From a virus (Duplodnaviria; Heunggongvirae; Uroviricota; Caudoviricetes), in IMG/VR virus record IMGVR_UViG_3300025602_000002, positions 102,718-166,717 of that record: a stretch of DNA of 64,000 nucleotides; one strand, 5' to 3'. The position numbers and the translations under genes were made by a program. Positions 2,673 to 53,104 of this stretch are shown one piece after another (the first letter of the stretch is position 1; the number at the start of each line of letters is the position of its first letter). The notes under the pieces are model-generated. The model saw only the letters and a program-made list of their open reading frames with translations. It had not been told where the DNA came from and did no database searches.

Positions 2673-2676
2673 ATTG

Positions 2677-2752
2677 TGGCCGGGACAGGGCTCGAACCTG
2701 TAGCTGACAGGGATTTAGAGTCCCCCGCTCTATCCAATTGAGCTACCCAGCC
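2677..2752 (-). tRNA. Amber suppressor tRNA (anticodon CTA); amino-acid identity undetermined
   Basis: GGCTGGG TA GCTC AATTGGATA GAGC G GGGGA-CTCTAAA-TCCCT GTCAGCT ACAGG-TTCGAGC-CCTGT CCCGGCC A. Positions 34-36 of the 7-nt loop are CTA, with U33 and A37 present. The acceptor stem pairs with one G-U. Confidence 0.7.
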
Positions 2753-5631: not shown

Positions 5632-5639
5632 TTTATTTT

Positions 5640-6330
5640 TTGGTTAAGTTATCAGTTATAAACTAAATCGCCGAATAGAAGGGATCTTGGGGCTCTATTC
5701 GACGACTCTTCTCCAGTATTGCTACTGGGTAAAGGTGTTTCAAGTTGTTCAGGTCGCTCACCGAGGATCTCATGAATGTTTGGCGTTAGTTCGATCGGTG
5801 ATCAACCCGATAGCGTAGGCCCTCTCAACAGATCGCTGTGTGCGATACATCCTCTGTTCCAATCGTACATCCTCTGTGCCCTCAAGGCAACTTGAAAGTT
5901 TAATTAATGTATATAAATAGTGTGCTGTTACGCCAAAGACAACTAGGAGGCACTCCTAGCTACAGCCCCCAATGCCTTTTCCCTGGAGGTAGATTTTATC
6001 CAACTGCTACGTCATGTTTAGAGCATGAGTTATCACTCTTTAAAAGATGGCTGCTTCTAAGCCTACTTCCTACTTATAATTTGGTCGCGAGTGTAGTTTA
6101 TTACACTACATTCCCTCTCTAACAAAGAGGTTCCTAGACTTAGACGAACTCGCGTTAATTGGTGGGGAAGTACAGGATCTTGCACCTGCGCTGATATGCA
6201 TCAGCATATATCCGGATAACTTCCCCTCTAGCAGTTAGGATAGGACTTAAACCTATATATGTTACTAATCGCCAGTGACTGTTCACGCCACCCGTTTTTC
6301 ACATGTCTTAGTCTATTTGGACGACCTAAC
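5640..6330. other. GC-rich structured noncoding region upstream of a tRNA cluster
   Basis: No ORF of 60 aa or more on the gene strand. GC content is visibly above the AT-rich coding regions. Stable hairpins such as CTAGGAG-GCA-CTCCTAG are present. Confidence 0.4.
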
Positions 6331-6333
6331 TAT

Positions 6334-20768: not shown

Positions 20769-20797
20769 AGTTTTCCTTTTAATAAGAACGAACGTAA

Positions 20798-20865
20798 CAG
20801 CGCGGATTGGATTCGAACCAATGTCTAGGGTATCCCCTAACTCTACCCTGCTGAGATACCGCCCC
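20798..20865 (-). tRNA. Short tRNA-like element (about 68 nt) with a tetraloop central arm
   Basis: T-arm ATTGG-TTCGAAT-CCAAT and a 6-of-7 acceptor stem. The central arm is TAGGG-GATA-CCCTA. Confidence 0.25.
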
Positions 20866-20896
20866 GTTACGCCGTTTCTTACGTACGTTTTGTAAG

Positions 20897-38032: not shown

Positions 38033-38656
38033 CTATAGTAATCCTTGTCTTTCTGCGATTGCTATAAGTGTTTCATTTGGTACTTTACGATTTCCTATAC
38101 TCAATCCTGTGTCTTCAAAGACTATTACGTCGCCGTCAAGGAATATTAATGGAGTTGTTTTAACATCTAACACTCTGGAACAGAAGCCAGCTCTAAACAA
38201 ATGACCTCCCTCTAATCCCGATTGTAATAACACATCCATGGCGTTTATACCGCGGTAATAACGTGGACCCGACACCTCACATACCGTTGTAACAGTTTCT
38301 ATATATTCGTCCATGTATCCATGCCAACTACGCCATTCTTTATCCGCATGAATACGTGCGAAATCGCCTTCTCTGAAAGCTACTCCATGAGGAGCTTCTG
38401 CTTTTATTCCATTTTGATTAAATAATCCCTGTAGTCCTGAATCAAGTTGTACTCCATATATAGTAATATTTTGGTCCTGGGGATTAATTGCTGAATCCAT
38501 AATTATTCCCAAGTCACCATTAGCTCCTACTGAGTGGTATTCCTGGTATTTATCGAGACCAAGTTTTCTCGCCATTTCTTCATAGCCACTATATTGTTGC
38601 CCAACGTGGGTTATAGACACTAAAGTATTTTTAGGGATTATATTATAGTCAATCAT
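38033..38656 (-). CDS. Paralog family A member 1
   Basis: Shares the C-terminal ...ERQGLL motif and internal similarity with 38657..39064 and 39094..39732. Confidence 0.45.
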   Translation of the reverse strand: MIDYNIIPKNTLVSITHVGQQYSGYEEMARKLGLDKYQEYHSVGANGDLGIIMDSAINPQDQNITIYGVQLDSGLQGLFNQNGIKAEAPHGVAFREGDFARIHADKEWRSWHGYMDEYIETVTTVCEVSGPRYYRGINAMDVLLQSGLEGGHLFRAGFCSRVLDVKTTPLIFLDGDVIVFEDTGLSIGNRKVPNETLIAIAERQGLL

Positions 38657-39064
38657 TTACAGTAAGCCTTGTCGTTCTAGTACAATTTTAATAGTATCAT
38701 TATCGATACATTGGCATCCTACCTGGATATCATCCTCACTAAAGACTACTTCATGTTCACCTATATACAAGGTTTCCTCTTCTATTTCTTCTGGCTCCAC
38801 TCTCATAAGAACGAAGAAAGGATATGAATTACCGTCTGATAACTCTATTCCTGTGTTAGAGTTTTTGCCTAGATTTGTTATTTTAAGGATATGCTCCTCT
38901 TCAACAGCCTCGGTCATCTCATGGATCCAGCTGTCTCCCCAACCCATTTCACCATCTTCAGCTGTTCTAACAACTTTAATAGATTCTCCTACTTCGAAGT
39001 CAGTGGCCTCGCTTAAAGTCATGTAGGCCATACTTAGTTTTGCGCTTGTTTCGCTATTGTTCAT
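38657..39064 (-). CDS. Paralog family A member 2
   Basis: RTAEDGEMGWGDSW and a C-terminal LERQGLL. Confidence 0.45.
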   Translation of the reverse strand: MNNSETSAKLSMAYMTLSEATDFEVGESIKVVRTAEDGEMGWGDSWIHEMTEAVEEEHILKITNLGKNSNTGIELSDGNSYPFFVLMRVEPEEIEEETLYIGEHEVVFSEDDIQVGCQCIDNDTIKIVLERQGLL

Positions 39065-39093
39065 TGTTTGTTTCCTTTATTTTAAAAGATTTA

Positions 39094-39732
39094 TTAGTTT
39101 CTGGCAATGATGCCTTGTTTTTTGGCAACAGTTAATAATTGATCGTTGGATATAGTTAGGTTTCCAACCCTTACATACTCTTTGTGGAAGTGCATAATAG
39201 ATCCATCAAAGACTAGGGCTACGTCTTCCACAAACTCTAAAACAAACCAAGGTACCCAGTACGGGTTATCTCCCTCTAGGTCTTCAATTTCATAACTATT
39301 GTGATCTTTATTAGTAATTCTATATAAATCGCCAACATCACAATCGTCTAATTCTTCAGGCCACTCCTCTGCCCATCCATATTCATCTTCTTCTGCAGTT
39401 CTGACTAATTTTACTAAATTGCCTGTTTTCAGCTCACACTTTGCGTGGTATTCCTCAAAAATTCCATATAATGAGTTAGTGTTTGTATCTGGTTCTAGTA
39501 CAAACCATGGATACCATCTAGTTCCGGCTGGTGTATCTAACATAATTCCCTGTCTAGGGTCTACAGCTGTTACTGTATAAATATGGTCCACTGTACTGTT
39601 CATGTCCGTTGTCCAAACACAGCCGTACCCCATTTCGCCAGTTTTAGCCGTTCTAATGACTCTTACTTTATCCCTGACTCTAATATTGCAGTTTTCAGTA
39701 AATCGTCTATATAATTCTCGTTCGTTAGTCAT
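39094..39732 (-). CDS. Paralog family A member 3 (internally duplicated)
   Basis: Two copies of the RTA(K/E)xGEMGYG / YGWAEEW module and a C-terminal KKQGII motif. Confidence 0.45.
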   Translation of the reverse strand: MTNERELYRRFTENCNIRVRDKVRVIRTAKTGEMGYGCVWTTDMNSTVDHIYTVTAVDPRQGIMLDTPAGTRWYPWFVLEPDTNTNSLYGIFEEYHAKCELKTGNLVKLVRTAEEDEYGWAEEWPEELDDCDVGDLYRITNKDHNSYEIEDLEGDNPYWVPWFVLEFVEDVALVFDGSIMHFHKEYVRVGNLTISNDQLLTVAKKQGIIARN

Positions 39733-39894
39733 TTGACTTTTCCTTATTTTTATTGTTTATAATAAATGTTGTTTATGTTTGATGTCATATATACTTATGG
39801 CTGTGTTTCGCGCTTCGGCGGTGGAAGATCCATAGGTAATACACATTTTTGGTTAGAGACGGTTCCTCGGTTCCTAGACCCAGACTCCGTCAGG

Positions 39895-39934
39895 TTGATA
39901 GCTTGATAGCTTGATAGCTTGATAGCTTGATAGC
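39895..39934. repeat. Tandem repeat (TTGATAGC) x5
   Basis: Five perfect 8-bp units directly abutting the stop of CDS 39935..40897. Confidence 0.8.
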
Positions 39935-40897
39935 TTAGTCAGAAAATAGTTTAGATTCGCCATAGTTGTTATACGTATTATCTATACTGTCATTATGGTC
40001 ATAGTAGTCATCAGCTGGCATTCCAACTGTTTTAATAAAAGCTTCAGATAGCTCAGCATGTGTAGGTATTTTAGGGTTTACTTCTAATGACCATAAGGGA
40101 TATGACCACTTTACTAAACTTTCATCTGCAAATATACTACGTTTGTCGGTAATGTCGAGATTAGGTTTTAACCATACACGAGCATTATGTATATCTACGC
40201 GATCTACAATAGCAAATCTACCAATTGCTTCATCCATATTAGGAATCCAACAAGCTTTAGCTCCCAAATATTCATCTGGCACTTTAGTAACTATCTTTAC
40301 TGAGTCACCAGCGTGTATATAAGACTCTAATAATATTGAGTAAGCTTCTTTTATAGAAAGGTCTTGAAGTACGGCGCCAAATACGCTATCTTCCTCTTTA
40401 CGTACGTCTTCTGCAATTACTTCAGAAATTAACTTAGGAACTAATAAAGAAGTATAATTATTACTACTGCAGACGCTGGTAGTTTCTTCTAATTCTATCT
40501 TCTTTAAGCACCATATAGGGAAATAGCATTTAACTGCTGCTAATATTGTTTCAGTTGTATGTGTAAATATGCCTCTTTCGGAATACCAAATTGGATCTTC
40601 GCATAAAGTTACGCCATTCACGTAGGAACGTCTGTGCCCGAAAGGAGCGTTTGATAGTGTTTCAGGCGAGTCTATTATATGTATACCTTCAACTATAAAT
40701 CTATGCCCTATTGTTACATCCATTTCTGGTATCCAGTCCGTTGACCAGCCTAGCTTTTTACTAATGTCGCTAGTGTCTGAGGGGCTGTTGATTGTGTATG
40801 GATTTAGGACTTCTACTATATCTCCTGGCTTTAGATACGAACTTTGTAAAGTTTCATAAGCCTTTCTTAATATGATATTTTTGGGGGTGTTATTCAT
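39935..40897 (-). CDS. Paralog family A' member (YPLWSL motif)
   Basis: 320 aa; shares the YPLWSL and IGH(R/V)FIV motifs with 40979..41575. Confidence 0.45.
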   Translation of the reverse strand: MNNTPKNIILRKAYETLQSSYLKPGDIVEVLNPYTINSPSDTSDISKKLGWSTDWIPEMDVTIGHRFIVEGIHIIDSPETLSNAPFGHRRSYVNGVTLCEDPIWYSERGIFTHTTETILAAVKCYFPIWCLKKIELEETTSVCSSNNYTSLLVPKLISEVIAEDVRKEEDSVFGAVLQDLSIKEAYSILLESYIHAGDSVKIVTKVPDEYLGAKACWIPNMDEAIGRFAIVDRVDIHNARVWLKPNLDITDKRSIFADESLVKWSYPLWSLEVNPKIPTHAELSEAFIKTVGMPADDYYDHNDSIDNTYNNYGESKLFSD

Positions 40898-40978
40898 ATT
40901 TGTGTTTCCTTTAATATGTTAAGTTAGTGTGTTGAATTAATATTGTTTATTATTCTGAAAGTATAATTTACTATATGT

Positions 40979-41575
40979 TTAAGTAAAGAGAGAAGGGGTT
41001 ACCTCATATCCTTGTGATGGCTTGTTTAATGGTCCATCTTCTGGATAAGTGCAAGATACATCAGCTGGCTTTGGAGGAGCCAAGGTGCCATCTTTGTCAA
41101 CAACAAAATTTAAGTCTATATATTCAATTGATTGTCTCATTTGTATGCTTACATTTATAGAATCTATTTGTTCTATCATATTTTTATCTAATGTTGTACT
41201 TAGATTTCTACGAATTTCATTACTTACAGCTTTGAGTACATCTGGGTTTTTTGGATACATTGGATGTGGAGGTACTATCTTTTGTAGACTCCATAGCGGG
41301 TATAGATAGTTACTAGCGTAGTCAATTGCTTCGTACTCCTCAGTATCTACGGTATCTTTTAATATAATACTATATTTTGGATGCATCTTAAGAGATATAC
41401 CGCTATATTCTAATTTGTTTACGATAAATACATGACCTATTGCTGGGTGCATATAGTATTCCCAGGAATATGGGTTCCCTGCAAAGTGGCGTGATGTTCG
41501 GTGAGTAACTAGTACTACATCACCGGTTTTTAAATAGGAGTTATATAATGAAGTATATTCGGACGTGTGTGTCAT
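40979..41575 (-). CDS. Paralog family A' member
   Basis: Track ORF 40979..41806 trimmed to the internal Met (MTHTSEY...) because the N-terminal 77 residues are a low-complexity read-through of the iteron region. Confidence 0.4.
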   Translation of the reverse strand: MTHTSEYTSLYNSYLKTGDVVLVTHRTSRHFAGNPYSWEYYMHPAIGHVFIVNKLEYSGISLKMHPKYSIILKDTVDTEEYEAIDYASNYLYPLWSLQKIVPPHPMYPKNPDVLKAVSNEIRRNLSTTLDKNMIEQIDSINVSIQMRQSIEYIDLNFVVDKDGTLAPPKPADVSCTYPEDGPLNKPSQGYEVTPSLFT

Positions 41576-41654
41576 TTTAGTGAGTTCCTGGTTAATTTTG
41601 ATTGTAATTTTTGTAATAATTTGTGTGTTTTGGGACAATTTATTGGTAAAAAGA

Positions 41655-41975
41655 GCGCAAAAGTGGTCAAAAGGTGGTTGAAAGTGGTAAGCAATTGGTC
41701 GAAAGTGGTAACGAAAGTGCTCAAAGTGGTAAAGAAAAGTGTAGTTTTGGTAAGACCTATATGTTGTGTAATGGGTATATAGCTTGTGTACGATATAGTT
41801 CTGCACAACATATGGGTAACCTATATAGCTGCTTGCTCTATCTAAAATAGAAATACACTGGCTTTTTTTGATGGTTTTTTTACCACTTTTGATGTTTTGC
41901 TTACCAGTTTGGGGCGTTCGCTTACCACTTTAGGGGGGTTGGCTTACCAGTTTGGGGGTTTTGCTTACCAGTGCC
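41655..41975. repeat. Iteron-like dyad: about 6 direct copies of AAAGTGGTAA (41655-41755), then 5 inverted copies TTACCA(C/G)TTT (41875-41975), around a 120-bp spacer
   Basis: Read directly from the sequence. The opposite orientation of the two arrays suggests a protein-binding origin or regulatory region. Confidence 0.6.
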
Positions 41976-41999
41976 ATTTTGGTCGAAATTGGGTGTAAG

Positions 42000-42660
42000 T
42001 ATAGGTAAATAATAAAGATAAGAGAAAAGTATAAAAAATCCAAACTACACTTTTGAATCCATTACTACACCATTACTACACATAGTAAAAAAATATATGT
42101 ATATATAATAACAATAACTTATTTGGTCTAAACTACGATTACTACGATTACTACGCTTTCTGGAAGGAGAGACACGTCAGCAAATATTTATAAATTGTCG
42201 ATCTCTTTTTTTTCTGATTAAGGACCCTCTAGTTTTGGCCTAAAAGTGTAGTAATGTAGTTTAGTATTGATAAGTGTATGTAAATAAAGAATATATCCAA
42301 ACTACACTTTTGAAAATAGGTGTAGTAACGTGTAGTAATGAAATTGGTAATTGCTATAAATGCTTAAAAATACTGATGTTATAGATAAAAAAAAGTGTAG
42401 TTTAGAATTTGGAAATATTTCCTTAATTAGGATACGCTTGTCTTTTTAGTATATAAATGATGGTGTAAGTGATGGTGTAAATGGTGTTCCGTGCAGGCTA
42501 CAAGCCTACTTTTTCCTAAAGTTAATTACAAGCGGTTTGCTAGCAACCAACTTGTGTTCTCCTTAGTACGCATTATTGATATATATGCTAACGGAACATT
42601 CAGGAAGTTTAATGGCCTTTCGAGAAGAAAAAGATAGCACGGCCAATTACGGCCAATTAT
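42000..42660. repeat. Repeat-rich AT-rich intergenic region
   Basis: An 18-bp exact direct repeat CCAAACTACACTTTTGAA at about 42039 and 42296. Inverted copies AAAAGTGTAGT at about 42252 and 42400. Tandem ATTACTACG x3 at about 42128. GATGGTGTAA x2 at about 42458. GGCCAATTA(C/T) x2 at 42641. Confidence 0.55.
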
Positions 42661-42682
42661 TCTTCTTCAGGATGTAGTAGTA

Positions 42683-43504
42683 TTATTTGGTTGTGGTGTC
42701 TGCTTTTGATACTAAATCTTCAGCACAAGGTACATAGACTGACTCATAAGTTACTGAATCTTGTTTGTTAGCTATGTGAGCTAACCCACGCCAGGCTGCT
42801 TCAGGTAAGTTCATACATCCTAGTTTTCTGATGGTACCGTTTTCTCTGTATCTTATGTTGTATCCGAAAAGCCTTTGAGGTTTTGGGTCTTGTAGGTGTT
42901 TGTAGTTGAACCCTGGATAGAAGAATGTGCTCTTACCCGGAATTAGGTGAGTCTCGTTCTCATACTCATCGCTGTAGTTTTTTAAGGAGTGTATTCGAAA
43001 TATTGGCTCTAAATAAGAGTCCAGAGCGCTATCGATTATTACACATAGCTCGTCATTTCCAACATTTCCAGGTATTTGAACAATATCACCTTCACAAGGA
43101 GTTGTAACTTTTGAGGGGTTGTATAGCTTTCTTATAAGATCTTTAGAAAACATAATTGATCGAGCATCTGTAGCAGAATATACTATAAATGCACCTTTCA
43201 ACATTGCAAACACAAAGTCTTTAGAGCTGAACAACACTTTAGGTACTAACTCTCTGGGGTAGTATATATTAAAGGCTGAGTGAGATAATTTAGCTCCTGA
43301 GCTATATAGTAATAGATGAGGAGTGTCTACAGATACGCTGTCTTGTTGCATTACTGTTACAACATTATTATTGATATCAGTACATATTCGTAGATGACCT
43401 ATTAACTCGTCAATGCTTTGCTGACTAGACATAAGATAATAGAGCCTTGACATATAGTCTTCTACTGCTAGATTAGCTATTTGGGGATGGTCTTTGAGAT
43501 TCAT
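42683..43504 (-). CDS. Paralog family B member 1
   Basis: Shares the NLIRKI, PCEGD and RLFGY motifs with the next two genes. Confidence 0.45.
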   Translation of the reverse strand: MNLKDHPQIANLAVEDYMSRLYYLMSSQQSIDELIGHLRICTDINNNVVTVMQQDSVSVDTPHLLLYSSGAKLSHSAFNIYYPRELVPKVLFSSKDFVFAMLKGAFIVYSATDARSIMFSKDLIRKLYNPSKVTTPCEGDIVQIPGNVGNDELCVIIDSALDSYLEPIFRIHSLKNYSDEYENETHLIPGKSTFFYPGFNYKHLQDPKPQRLFGYNIRYRENGTIRKLGCMNLPEAAWRGLAHIANKQDSVTYESVYVPCAEDLVSKADTTTK

Positions 43505-43505
43505 G

Positions 43506-44222
43506 TTATCCTTTCATTGCGTTTTTTAGAAGTAAGTCCCATAATTTGGGGTCAATATCTTGGCAACCTACATTTGATATAGCATTTCTTTCTTTATTGT
43601 AAGTTGTACAATTACTACCAAATAGAAATTTGGGAGTAGGGTCTTGTAAAAACTCACAATCTAATAGGTCTGTGTACTCTATGCCTATTTCATAATCATC
43701 TACTATTCTAGTACATCTCATCATTAGTTTATTACCCGCTATGCAGGCGTCCAAGATCATAACCATCTCACCAGTTTTAGTTCTTACTACGTCACCTTCA
43801 CAGGGTTGGTTGGTGTGGTCGCTTCGTCGTATTTTTCTAATGAGGTTTTTTGTAAATACCCAGATTTCATCTCCGTGTAGTAATAAGTAGGCTTCTCCTA
43901 TGTCGGCAACAATATAATCGTTTGTTCCATCCTTATCATAAATAATGTTAGGTATGAGGTGTTCAGGGTATGTGTAAGTTTTTAGCTTTTTGATGGGCGC
44001 GAGGTCCCCTATATGAGTTGAGTGCCAGGTTCTATAAGGCAGTTGTTGATTCATAGGGAAGCCGGGTTTAGAGAACCACATAAACACAGCACCCTCCTGA
44101 GTTCGCTGTATTGAGATGTCTTTAAGTTTAAAAGTGTTGTATCCGCTCAGAACTTCGTCATATAAATGCAGATAAGCTTGTACTAAGGATAGATGATATT
44201 TGTTAATAATATGTTGTAGCAT
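43506..44222 (-). CDS. Paralog family B member 2
   Basis: KNLIRKI...PCEGDVV...FLFG motifs. Confidence 0.45.
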   Translation of the reverse strand: MLQHIINKYHLSLVQAYLHLYDEVLSGYNTFKLKDISIQRTQEGAVFMWFSKPGFPMNQQLPYRTWHSTHIGDLAPIKKLKTYTYPEHLIPNIIYDKDGTNDYIVADIGEAYLLLHGDEIWVFTKNLIRKIRRSDHTNQPCEGDVVRTKTGEMVMILDACIAGNKLMMRCTRIVDDYEIGIEYTDLLDCEFLQDPTPKFLFGSNCTTYNKERNAISNVGCQDIDPKLWDLLLKNAMKG

Positions 44223-44243
44223 ATTTATTCCTTTTTTAATAGT

Positions 44244-44930
44244 TTAAAAATAATCGTTGTTGGCGGATTCAAGTAACACGTCCCACAAGGATTTAGTGAT
44301 CCTATGACATCCAATTTGAACAATCCGGGACTGAGAACCCTCATTAGTAAATCTGGCGTGATACCCGAACAATCGAGGTGGTCTTTTGGTTTGTAAAAAT
44401 TCACAAGAATTTACAAAGCTCATAGATACCTCACGATCGTAGCCCCGAGTGGTGGCTATAGAATAATTGAAAAGATTATTATTTTCTTGAAGAGTTACAT
44501 AATTTATAGTATGTGGGGTATCTTCAAATAATATAACATCACCTTCGCAGGGTACCAGTACTTTAGTAGGAAGGCCTATCTTACGTATCAAGTTTTTGGA
44601 AATATATATATAATCGGAAAGTTCATGATGATACACTAAAAAATGATTTCTAAAAGCTGCGTAAATTGCTGTACCACTTTTACTTAACACTGTAGGCTTT
44701 AATTCTTCTGGAAACTCATAATGGTGAATCGTTTTGGTAGGAGGTAAGCCTGTATAGCTACGAGAATAAGCTGTGTATTTTCCTGTAGACAACACATACC
44801 CTATCGAAACATCGCCGAATATAGTTCTCTGTATAATAACTGGAGTATGTATGTCCCCCATTCTATGTTGCAGGGACATATATTCTTTAGCAAGTTCATA
44901 TGTTAATTTGTCTGTAATAGTTTTAAGCAT
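44244..44930 (-). CDS. Paralog family B member 3
   Basis: KNLIRKI...PCEGDVI...RLFGY motifs. Confidence 0.45.
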   Translation of the reverse strand: MLKTITDKLTYELAKEYMSLQHRMGDIHTPVIIQRTIFGDVSIGYVLSTGKYTAYSRSYTGLPPTKTIHHYEFPEELKPTVLSKSGTAIYAAFRNHFLVYHHELSDYIYISKNLIRKIGLPTKVLVPCEGDVILFEDTPHTINYVTLQENNNLFNYSIATTRGYDREVSMSFVNSCEFLQTKRPPRLFGYHARFTNEGSQSRIVQIGCHRITKSLWDVLLESANNDYF

Positions 44931-44949
44931 TACTGCTCCTTTTTATTTG

Positions 44950-45135
44950 TTAATTAGTTTCGATAAGATATTTAGCAAAATCAGATAAGCTTACGTCTTT
45001 AGGTAATTGTTTCATGTATTTAGAGATAATAACTTTTAGTTCTAGTTCTTTGTTTGATTTTGTAGAACGTAAGGCTTTATTAATTTTGAACACAACCTCT
45101 TTATCGAAGAGATTGTTTAAATCGAATTTAGTCAA
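44950..45135 (-). CDS. Hypothetical small protein
   Basis: 61 aa; first gene downstream of a promoter-like repeat. Confidence 0.3.
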   Translation of the reverse strand: MTKFDLNNLFDKEVVFKINKALRSTKSNKELELKVIISKYMKQLPKDVSLSDFAKYLIETN

Positions 45136-45214
45136 TGATGGGTCTCCTGTGTATTCCAGTATTCTTATACCGGTATTTATTAAATAATGTTATAGGGTTA
45201 AATATTGTCATAGG

Positions 45215-45246
45215 TCTTATACCTACAAATTTAAGGTAAAAAAAAG
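45215..45246 (-). promoter_or_regulatory. Promoter-like conserved repeat, copy 1 (variant)
   Basis: TCTTATACC...TTTAAGGTAAAAAAAAG. On the minus strand this reads TTTTTTTACCTTAAA...GGTATAAGA, upstream of CDS 44950..45135. Confidence 0.4.
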
Positions 45247-45820
45247 AATACGCTTGTAAGATGGCACAGAGTGCACGGGCGTAAGGCCAATTTTTCAGGT
45301 GGCTTTCCTGGTATTCTTTTTATGGAAGATGAGAGTGGCTGAGGGGTAAACTCTTCTTCCGAGGGATGCAACTCCCTTTGCGAGACTTATTAATCCCCGC
45401 ACCACCTACGTTAAGTAGGAAGCCCTATCTTAAATTCTTTTCCAAATTGAAGGCTCTAGCCTTGCAACTCCTTCGGATAGACACCCAACGTTTTTATTAC
45501 GTCTTTGGCCCAGTTTTATGAAGTTTGTACTTTTCCTGAGAATACAGTTAGTACGGTATATCTTTAAAGGGATCATTTCAATTCCCCTCGTTTCCACGCA
45601 GACTTACGTCGTCGTAATACACCAATCACAGCTCCAGGTATGGAGCCAGGTCTTTCCACTTACATTAACTCTACAATTTCACGACTATCTTAGCTGCCGC
45701 CAAGCTTAACCGCTTCCTTATAAATACTGCTGCAACCCTTGCGAGGCGCAGAGCTCGACGTTATACAGGCCGATATTAGTGATCTTTTATTATAAGCAGC
45801 CAGGAATCTAATTGCTTTCA
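45240..45820. other. Structured GC-richer noncoding region at the strand switch
   Basis: No ORF of 60 aa or more on either strand except a short spurious one. Hairpins such as GAGGGA-TGCAAC-TCCCTT are present. It lies next to the tRNA-like element at 45824-45894. Confidence 0.35.
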
Positions 45821-45823
45821 TTA

Positions 45824-45894
45824 TAAATGACGAGAATCGAACTCGTGATCTACGGATTAATATTCCGTTGCTCTACCAACTGAGCTACATTATG
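45824..45894 (-). tRNA. tRNA-like element with an ATATTAA anticodon loop (positions 34-36 = ATT)
   Basis: Canonical D-arm GCTC-AGTTGGTA-GAGC and T-arm ACGAG-TTCGATT-CTCGT, with anticodon stem ACGGA/TCCGT. The acceptor strands pair poorly. Probably a pseudogene or unusual tRNA. Confidence 0.3.
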
Positions 45895-46428
45895 GTTTTT
45901 CTGTGATTGGGAGGACGCGTTCCCGGTTGTGGTTACGTAGTTTTCAGCCACATAATGCCACTCGCCCTCGTAAGTCATTAGCCATGACAGCCTCCGATCC
46001 TTCATCATAGTAGTTGTCTCTTCTTGACTTAGAAGCCAATGAAGGCCTCAATATCTTGATCCCGACAAACTATATAATTGATAACCCGCTTGACAGACAG
46101 GATATCTTGCGATTACTATACAGACATTTCTGCCTACCCCTCAGGGGATACGTATCTCGACCTTCACGCCTCGCAGTTAGCCTGGAGTGTTGGACTATTT
46201 TTTACAAGATAAATAGAAGTTCGCAGTGTATAAATGTTTGCACTCCCGAAGGAGAACAACGCAATGCCAGGTATAATTTCACAGACCCGACTGCTTTTAG
46301 TCCCATTGCTGGGGTTATCTTTAACTGGATGTCATACCACCCAGGTGCTAATTAAGGCTAAGCCTTGATTGCGAAATTCTTATACCAGAAAATATTGTTT
46401 TTTAAAAGACATTGGGTTATATTCAAGT

Positions 46429-52383: not shown

Positions 52384-52672
52384 GTTATGTCTCCTTTTAC
52401 GTTATTTAGTTGTTTAATTAACGCCAGACATGGATTTTTCTCATTGTATCCTCTGGCGCATCATTCTTATACCCTATTTGGGGCCAAAATAGCCCATTTT
52501 TGACTAATATGAGCATCATACACTTAATTATTAACGTTTTAAACTCGATCTTGCGGATTAAGGTTCCATATCATGCCCCCTATCCAAATGCACAGAATAA
52601 AACTAAATTGAAGGGTTTAAAATTTTTCCTATATGAGATTTTTTATTTTAAAATTTTTTAATTTATTTTTTT

Positions 52673-53104
52673 TTATTTTAAAACTTTTTCCCCAGATTTC
52701 AACATTTTTTCCCGGTGCTTATGGCAGGCCCATACTTCTTTTAAGTCACTTCTCTTAAGAGTCACGGTATTTATAATATCCCAACCATAGCCCTGAATAG
52801 CTACTTCAAGCCTAATCCGTAAGATTTTAGGCCCATAGGTTCCATGTAGGCGCATACGGGTTAAAATTCCTTCGGGAGATAATGTATAGGTATCCGTGCC
52901 CCCAGGCCATGCTAAACCTATCTTAATTCTCCCAAAAGGTGAATATTTCAATTTATCAAGCACTTGTTTTAAAACTGAGTATTTATATATATGACAACCA
53001 ACCCTTAATCCTTCATGATGCGGTACAATATTCCTATTAATAACCTCATGATCGAGCGCTCCTATGCGTTCCTTGACTTTCCAAGGCCATTTATCATTCA
53101 TCAC
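52673..53104 (-). CDS. Paralog family C member 1
   Basis: Shares VGC...SVL..L...PFG...R.R....GP.KI(L/V)RIR...W...........FKR..LK..W with three adjacent genes and with 58228..58653. Confidence 0.45.
   Translation of the reverse strand: MMNDKWPWKVKERIGALDHEVINRNIVPHHEGLRVGCHIYKYSVLKQVLDKLKYSPFGRIKIGLAWPGGTDTYTLSPEGILTRMRLHGTYGPKILRIRLEVAIQGYGWDIINTVTLKRSDLKEVWACHKHREKMLKSGEKVLK

Follow-up and report, generated by a model that had tools for sequence, protein, structure and literature searches.

Opposed arrays of a short phased word in the largest intergenic gap of an uncultured large phage suggest a multi-site protein-binding platform and a possible replication origin

Inverted arrays of initiator sites load two helicases head to head at the SV40 core origin, at the papillomavirus E1 sites, and at the type I iterons of the phage P4 ori/crr. 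Type II and type III centromeres form a protein-DNA superhelix on curved DNA; their repeats are all direct, and the operon encodes ParR/ParM or TubR/TubZ. The satellite PLE has a 2.7-kb non-coding region with four repeat types, one of which is the RepA iteron and is needed for replication (PMC7145576). In phage T5, Repeat Region 3, or the injection stop signal, is an untranslated stretch of ~1.1–1.2 kb with nested direct repeats (nine DRD copies), inverted repeats, and palindromes; it is located in the terminal repeat, next to the pre-early genes, and its inverted repeats have paired DnaA or DnaA* boxes (bioRxiv 10.1101/866236). Here, we describe a 1.1-kb repeat-dense intergenic region (positions 41576–42682) in a 64-kb stretch of an uncultured large phage (IMG/VR record IMGVR_UViG_3300025602_000002, positions 102,718 to 166,717; the whole stretch is referred to as the window). 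Almost no origins or other cis sites have been mapped in huge uncultured phages, and this locus provides a well-delimited candidate, with ~20 phased copies of one word at one place in at least 84 kb.

The region lies between the stop of a minus-strand gene (42683) and the ATG of the next minus-strand gene (41575) and is the largest gap without genes in the window. Its GC content is 33%, which is under the coding average. Repeats were searched for in ~84 kb of contiguous phage sequence, comprising the window and two flanking loci that add ~20 kb beyond it, and their significance was assessed from the excess of repeated 9-mers per 1.1-kb tile relative to 500 dinucleotide shuffles. No other kilobase in this sequence is as dense in repeats. 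The repeated-9-mer excess of the region is 102, compared to 17.2 ± 5.4 (maximum 37) in the shuffles; the runner-up unrelated tile in the window has an excess of 43, and no tile in the two flanking loci exceeds that value. A 10-mer of the AAAGTGGTAA type occurs 21 times in the window when at most one mismatch is allowed (8.6 ± 2.9 in shuffles), and eight of the 21 occurrences fall inside 300 bp. The region's repeat motifs and repeat density were found at only this locus in the ~84 kb. A sequence-only reading of the window had proposed a repeat-rich intergenic region here, and the repeats that it listed are all present, with small corrections.

The region is non-coding. No convincing open reading frame (ORF) was found in it under genetic code 11 or with TAG or TGA recoded, and the gene caller of the source places no gene there. 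One ORF with a GTG start (40979–41806) crosses the left array as YHF-type heptads and was judged an artefact of the 21-bp (7-codon) period, because the ATG at 41575 has a ribosome-binding site ahead of it and is the start chosen by the gene caller, and because the mirror array lies in no gene.

The most regular repeats form two opposed arrays. The left array (41660–41734, plus strand) has four copies of AAAGTGGTAA(GC), starting at 41660 (one mismatch), 41681, 41702, and 41723, with a period of exactly 21 bp (TRF period 21, score 79). Degenerate half-period copies occur within it at 41670 (AAAGGTGGTT), 41691 (CAATTGGTCG), and 41712 (GAAAGTGCTC); the sequence-only reading had counted about six direct copies at 41655–41755, of which four are copies of AAAGTGGTAA and the rest are these degenerate ones. 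The right array (41878–41974, minus strand) has five copies of AAA(G/C)TGGTAAGC, which read TTACCA(C/G)TTT on the plus strand, with a spacing of 21/21/22/21 bp (TRF period 21, 4.8 copies, score 107). The first four 10-mers start at 41880, 41901, 41922, and 41944, and the fifth copy, which had been listed with the others, is present in degenerate form (GCACTGGTAAGC, 41963–41974). The spacers of this array are G-rich on the plus strand, and its units are 77% alike across the full 21 bp. Both arrays thus have the form of iterons, taken as at least three direct repeats of one word with a period of ~17–22 bp: four copies at 21 bp on the left and five at 21/21/22/21 bp on the right. The gap between them is 147 bp (41733–41879) rather than the 120 bp originally given, and with 63%–70% AT it is close to the window as a whole (~63%). 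The arrays therefore do not flank an AT-rich tract, as had been supposed; the AT-rich sequence lies to the right of both (41980–42130).

The likeness between the two arms is confined to the 10–12-bp motif. When the opposed arms were compared, they were complementary in 32 of 40 motif columns and in 10 of 35 spacer columns. Since the motif columns match and the spacers are random, selection appears to preserve a short recognition word in constant helical phase rather than base pairing. The opposed arrays are not a recent inverted duplication, as word and helical phase have been kept and pairing has not. In the window, 10.5-bp A/T-tract periodicity is highest at 41571–41675 and second highest at 41861–41965, and the DNA of the arrays is therefore predicted to be intrinsically curved. 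Because of the motif-only match of the arms and the A/T-tract phasing, we read the arrays as protein-binding sites rather than as an RNA hairpin. The same two properties, together with the two-turn spacing, bear out the proposal that the arrays consist of one protein-binding-type motif in both orientations.

A heptamer core, GTRGTAA, is common to the repeat families AAAGTGGTAA, GTGTAGTAATG, and CGTAGTAAT, and a variant of it, GTAGTTT, is contained in AAAAGTGTAGTTTGG. Twelve of the 36 exact GTRGTAA copies in the window are within the region, which makes up 1.7% of the window's length, and the region has ~20 sites when near-variants are included. These sites form three orientation blocks: forward at 41660–41749 (four sites at 41660–41734), reverse at 41878–42158 (~10 sites at 41878–42156), and mostly forward at 42242–42405 (three to four sites at 42242–42340). 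They describe two large imperfect dyads, one made of the 21-bp arrays (centre 41806) and one made of tandem copies with 9–11-bp spacing (centre near 42200–42220).

Taken together, the region is probably a cis-acting multi-site platform for one or more sequence-specific DNA-binding proteins. One such protein, or a few paralogous ones, would read GTRGTAA and occupy the ~20 phased sites, and binding would wrap the intrinsically curved DNA into a large nucleoprotein complex. The locus is an iteron-type cis element, a known general kind, and no sequence relatives of it were found.

As for what such a platform does, the likeliest single role is that of a phage replication origin, which we put forward tentatively and with transcription control as a close second. 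An initiator would polymerize on the opposed 21-bp-period arrays (41660–41734 and 41878–41974), an adjacent and easily melted AT-rich tract (42072–42131) would open, and the mirror-oriented arms would allow the head-to-head loading of two replicative helicases. The tract is 80% AT, has low duplex stability, and is a candidate unwinding element; with −60.8 kcal/mol it ranks fifth among the least stable 60-mers of the 64 kb (mean −75.3 ± 5.1). Our best guess in favor of an origin thus combines phased iterons in mirror arms, an AT-rich tract among the five least stable 60-mers, and the largest gap of a tightly packed genome. A single-copy cis site fits better than a general promoter element, because these motifs and this repeat density are found at no other place in the ~84 kb. 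Should read depth peak at this locus, it would be among the first sequence-defined origins in phages of this kind, and, if it is an origin, the GTRGTAA word would be a handle for identifying the initiator protein.

Several findings weigh against an origin. No initiator, helicase, primase, or helix-turn-helix gene was found among ~100 window ORFs scanned with Pfam and PHROGs or among the Pfam marks on the flanking loci; the genes around the region are for RNA repair, NAD, and tRNAs. The region has no DnaA box (TTWTNCACA) and no integration host factor (IHF) site (WATCAANNNNTTR), which is weak evidence. The AT-rich tract is not between the arrays; it is found ~100 bp beyond the outer end of the right array, and the window has four more sites of equal instability. 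Only 85 bp separate the end of the left array from the gene start downstream of it, a position that would fit an operator equally well. The proteins encoded by the flanking paralogs are poor candidates for the binding protein because they are acidic to near-neutral. No relative of the locus was found in megablast and blastn searches of 50,697 phage records and 72,556 plasmids. There is also no replication-type strand switch at the region, a test that has little power here since skew tracks transcription: coding-strand GC skew is +0.12 at 0–38 kb (minus strand), +0.12 at 46–52 kb (plus strand), and +0.19 at 52–64 kb (minus strand), and so is positive on both sides regardless of strand. The cumulative skew has a local minimum near 40 kb that comes from eight outlier flanking paralog genes and the G-rich right array.

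The cumulative curve reaches a still lower value, −6.16, toward the right end of the window. The skew check that the sequence-only reading had suggested for an origin thus gave no flip at the region within the window and a lower point elsewhere, and we rejected GC skew as origin evidence. Whichever role the locus has, the dip is compositional and not replicative. Spo0A motifs, parS motifs, and GATC clusters are likewise absent from the region.

Transcription control is a possible alternative, if a somewhat doubtful one, in which the arrays are operator or upstream-activating sites of a phage regulator for the downstream minus-strand unit (from 41575). The upstream operon terminates at 42655–42640, with a terminator-like hairpin after its last gene, and the promoter of the downstream unit must therefore sit in the gap, where the left array ends just ahead of the ATG. 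Since the region lacks the common promoter cassette of the phage (GGGTATAAGAA class), a different, factor-dependent promoter would be needed. Promoters are classically activated by phased curved DNA upstream of them, and phages assemble multi-site nucleoprotein complexes between divergent promoters, as in the p4/p6 switch of phi29. Read outward, each array is a series of TTACCAsTTT copies that ends in a −35-like hexamer, TTGACC on the minus strand (41672–41667) and TTGGTC on the plus strand (41979–41984). This suggests a divergent, factor-dependent promoter pair at the outer ends of the arrays, and the rightward promoter would possibly give a ~0.5-kb non-coding transcript ending at the hairpin at 42495. 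That promoter, however, would have no plus-strand gene to serve, and neither the recurrent cassette nor any sigma-70-type site has a match beside either array or elsewhere in the region. In addition, ~20 sites across 800 bp are well above known phage operators, the motif stands at no other promoter in ~84 kb, and no regulator gene was found nearby. If the region does control transcription, it would be the main switch of the ~40-kb block of tRNA, RNA-repair, and NAD genes downstream. Another kind of single-copy cis site is unlikely, whether a partition centromere (parC/tubC), a terminase recognition or pac site or terminal-repeat boundary, or a T5-like injection stop or DNA-transfer checkpoint. 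The uniqueness of the locus would suit any of these, and two clusters of phased 10–11-bp or 21-bp iterons on curved DNA resemble R1 parC, pSK41 parC, and pBtoxis tubC. Against them, no partition or terminase family (ParA, ParM, ParR, TubZ, TubR, or terminase) was matched in the ~100 scanned window ORFs or in the precomputed marks of the neighboring 20 kb, and the gene directly downstream is an acidic SH3-like ORFan rather than a par gene. The region has no T5-like pairs of DnaA boxes and no sequence similarity to any phage record, and contigs from several samples run through it, so that it is not an obvious genome end. We assign a similarly low probability to an orphan cis element, in which one GTRGTAA-reading protein would coat a tripartite platform serving either as an origin of a new type or as a checkpoint in the handling of DNA (injection stop, segregation, or anchoring), with no known sequence or protein relatives; such an element may be functionally tied to the flanking clusters of fast-evolving acidic paralogs.

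Two further explanations appear very improbable. A structured non-coding RNA or long hairpin RNA would account for the dyads at 41640–41990 and 42010–42520, which fold into long nested hairpins on either strand with z-scores of about −4 to −6 (−4.3 on the plus strand and −5.6 on the minus strand for 42010–42520), and the phage does carry a large non-coding RNA (GOLLD) 3 kb away as well as at least 24 tRNA genes. Comparable z-scores arise from any inverted repeat, however, and the arm complementarity described above is found only in motif columns and is random in the spacers. The region is 33% GC, whereas the GOLLD locus is GC-enriched, and no promoter for such an RNA was found. A search of 41400–42800 against Rfam 15 at E ≤ 1 gave no match in the region, only a spurious long non-coding RNA fragment outside it, in the same search mode that detected GOLLD 3 kb away. 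The remaining explanation is non-functional or selfish DNA, namely what is left of an expansion of tandem repeats, or a miniature element (Tn7/Mu-end-like) that has subterminal repeats in inverted orientation and was inserted between the two fast-evolving paralog clusters. The position of the region between compositionally atypical ORFan paralog families would agree with this, the 77% identity of the right-array units over 21 bp is expected after tandem duplication, and the scaffold of another sample is interrupted at one of the region's tandem repeats. Yet the region is single-copy in ~84 kb, no second copy was found in three public collections, and there is no transposase in the Pfam and PHROGs scans and no target-site duplication. 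With only 147 bp between them, the arrays do not have the arrangement of transposon ends. Spacers have been randomized while motif and phase were kept, which points to selection, and an independent sample is identical in sequence.

The other parts of the region were delineated as follows. Positions 41576–41659 (minus strand) are the leader of the downstream gene and presumably its promoter region; T/A-tracts are phased there at ~10.5 bp, and a ribosome-binding site (AGGA) precedes the ATG at 41575 by 8 nt. One copy of a second motif (AAAAGTGTAGTTTTG, 41735–41749, plus strand) adjoins the left array. The spacer between the arrays contains a hairpin or palindrome (41755–41770/41802–41817) with a stem of ~14–16 bp, arms of ACCTATATGTTGTGTA and TGCACAACATATGGGT, a loop of 31–35 nt, and a DNA fold of −14 kcal/mol (z −2.4). 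Direct repeats of TATATAGCT occur inside this hairpin (41776) and just beyond it (41822). The hairpin is centered at 41786, 20 bp off the symmetry center of the arrays. An 8-nt likeness of the central hairpin (TATGTTGT) to the Ter sites of Escherichia coli is at chance level and was dropped.

The left arm of the second dyad (42024–42160) contains AAAAGTGTAGTTTGG, two copies of GTGTAGTAATG, two of CGTAGTAAT, and CGTAGTTTAG, all on the minus strand. Its center (42161–42240) has the only GATC of the region (42200), and its right arm (42241–42421, plus strand) has mostly plus-strand copies (AAAAGTGTAGTAATG, GTGTAGTAAC, GTGTAGTAATG, and AAAAGTGTAGTTTAG) and one minus-strand copy (42297–42311). The short repeats given by the sequence-only reading were confirmed. 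These comprise the 18-bp direct repeat CCAAACTACACTTTTGAA (42040 and 42297, 257 bp apart), inverted copies of AAAAGTGTAGT, and short tandem repeats, including ACTACGATT (2.7 copies, 42132–42155), TAAATGATGGTG (12 bp, 2.5 copies, 42454–42483), and ACGGCCAATT (2.1 copies, 42639–42659). Another assembly of the same phage (L001, 11048–11147) has a 100-N scaffold gap exactly at the TAAATGATGGTG repeat, which suggests assembler ambiguity or copy-number variation. Toward the right end of the region are a weak terminator-like hairpin followed by a T-run (42495–42516, plus strand), an imperfect palindrome (ACAAGCGGTTTGCTAGCAACCAACTTGT, 42528–42555), and a terminator-like hairpin formed by the two copies of ACGGCCAATT with a T-rich tail (42630–42655, minus strand), 28 nt after the stop of the upstream gene.

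The region separates two tandem ORFan paralog families, at 38033–41575 on the left and 42683–44930 on the right, and both families proved to be real. The left family has five genes that encode acidic SH3-like repeats (isoelectric point [pI] 4.1–5.6). The right family has three genes that share an NLIRK...PCEGD motif (pI 6.1, 6.1, and 8.3). Third-position GC skew in the two families is −0.18 and −0.25, opposite in sign to the rest of the genome. Searches with the flanking proteins in Pfam, PHROGs, and PDB sequences were empty apart from a weak SH3_15 match in the left family, and AlphaFold models of the flanking proteins (pLDDT 46 and 41) were too poor to use. A gap between two left-family genes contains a perfect 8-bp tandem repeat of TTGATAGC (5.2 copies, 39895–39936) and two copies of CGGTTCCT (39860–39875).

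We searched public collections for relatives of the locus and its neighbors. Three neighboring proteins had no match in IMG/VR, and tblastn against phages also found none. A profile search of 5.8 billion proteins with the right-hand paralog family recovered only the phage's own genes. Remote homologs of the left family (P0011 and P0017) occur in other phages as solitary small SH3-like genes, and no repeat-rich gap adjoins them. Two to three copies of the motif at 21-bp spacing were found at 10, 7, and 7 loci in IMG/VR, JGI metagenomes, and GTDB genomes, respectively; all of these are unrelated tandem or coding repeats, none is from this phage, and a widespread AAAGTGGTAA iteron family was dropped as chance. 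Across the region, a second sample (L019) shows the identical sequence and no micro-diversity. Many public assemblies contain the exact sequence (74 index blocks), on contigs of >200 kb and, for example, in ENA ERZ23491642 scaffold_55 (138,951 bp); data sets with this phage include SAMN05224480/ERZ23491642, ERZ4200993, and ~70 others, and the longest contig is at least 211 kb.

The window has at least 24 tRNA genes, nearly all on the minus strand, an RNA-repair set (two RNA ligases, PNKP, Thg1, and RlaP), NAD-salvage genes, a kinase/PP2C pair, and many ORFans. A 563-amino-acid protein from the window is 34% identical to proteins of two metagenomic phages of 485–595 kb, and no closer relative was found in the phage collection. 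Strong Shine-Dalgarno sites are present, and the best fit is to the standard genetic code. A tRNA with the anticodon CTA (2676–2752, minus strand) is of the amber-suppressor type and was called "Pyl" by ARAGORN; the standard code still gives the best ORFs. An extra tRNA-like match at 20798–20865 (minus strand, in the gap 20769–20896) scored 37.6 bits and was not reported by ARAGORN.

GOLLD (Rfam RF02032), a giant ornate non-coding RNA (PMC12286853), was located at 45533–45970 (minus strand), in the gap 44931–46368 and 3 kb from the region. The match covers the full model (1–416) with 124.8 bits, below the gathering score of 150, and an E value of 4e-34, and a tRNA (45822–45893) is nested in it. 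In the tRNA cluster, a 59-nt sequence at 6019–6077 (minus strand, in the gap 5632–6333) matches positions 1089–1152 of the bacterial 23S rRNA model (34.5 bits, E value 8e-7). We take these positions to be the GTPase-associated center, or L11-binding region, and the match may be an rRNA-fragment mimic.

A recurrent cassette of ~35 bp (TTTTTTTACCTTAAAAAGGGTATAAGAAKTATAG), often right after a hairpin, occurs at 52464, 59814, 60125, 60417, and 63349 (minus strand), with weaker copies at 45162 and 45214 (minus strand) and ~11 near-copies across a locus that overlaps the right end of the window (L021). This is probably the main promoter class of the phage, placed ahead of clusters of small ORFs, and promoters of the upstream operon with the recurrent cassette (TTTTTTTACCTTAAAAAGGGTATAAGAA...) are found at ~45.2 kb. 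The least stable 60-mer in the window is a very AT-rich tandem repeat (52616–52691) with a 30-bp (15-bp) period, which lies in a plus-to-minus strand-switch gap (52384–52672) and reaches just into the next gene.

The comparison with described systems was made feature by feature. In the p4/p6 switch of phi29, as envisaged for the region, protein binds at multiple sites with helical periodicity and wraps the DNA between promoters; the switch spans ~200–300 bp with few p4 sites, compared to ~800 bp and ~20 sites here, where no promoters were identified. In R1 parC, pSK41 parC, and pBtoxis tubC, two iteron clusters (~10–11 or 20 bp) lie on one helix face upstream of an operon start, and the arrangement of the two arrays ahead of the downstream unit is similar. 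The clusters of the region are inverted, however, and the downstream genes encode acidic SH3-like ORFans; these genes gave no match to ParM, ParR, TubZ, TubR, or ParA at E values up to 1, and the best match was a weak one to SH3_15 (E value 0.005).

Repeat Region 3 of T5 and the region are both untranslated, repeat-dense stretches of ~1 kb in large tRNA-rich phages, and function is inferred in both. They differ in that the region has no DnaA boxes and no sequence similarity to the T5 region, and contigs read through the locus; the two phages are unrelated by every protein tested.

The SV40, papillomavirus, and P4 origins share with the region short words in mirror orientation around a central segment and flanking AT-rich DNA. 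The arrays described here are much longer (four to five sites at 21 bp) and have a 147-bp spacer, and no superfamily 3 (SF3) helicase or primase-helicase gene was identified in the phage sequence examined. Relative to iteron-type origins, the region lacks a cognate Rep or initiator gene within ~±40 kb, DnaA and IHF sites, a strand-asymmetry switch, and similarity to known origins, and its AT-rich tract neither lies between nor abuts the arrays. In its architecture, the region nevertheless resembles the iteron-type origins of lambda (ori), P1 (oriR/incA), pSC101, R6K, RK2, and PLE (PMC7145576), with which it has in common direct repeats of 17–22-bp period, helical phasing, predicted curvature, clusters in both orientations, a nearby AT-rich tract, and a long non-coding region that holds several repeat types.

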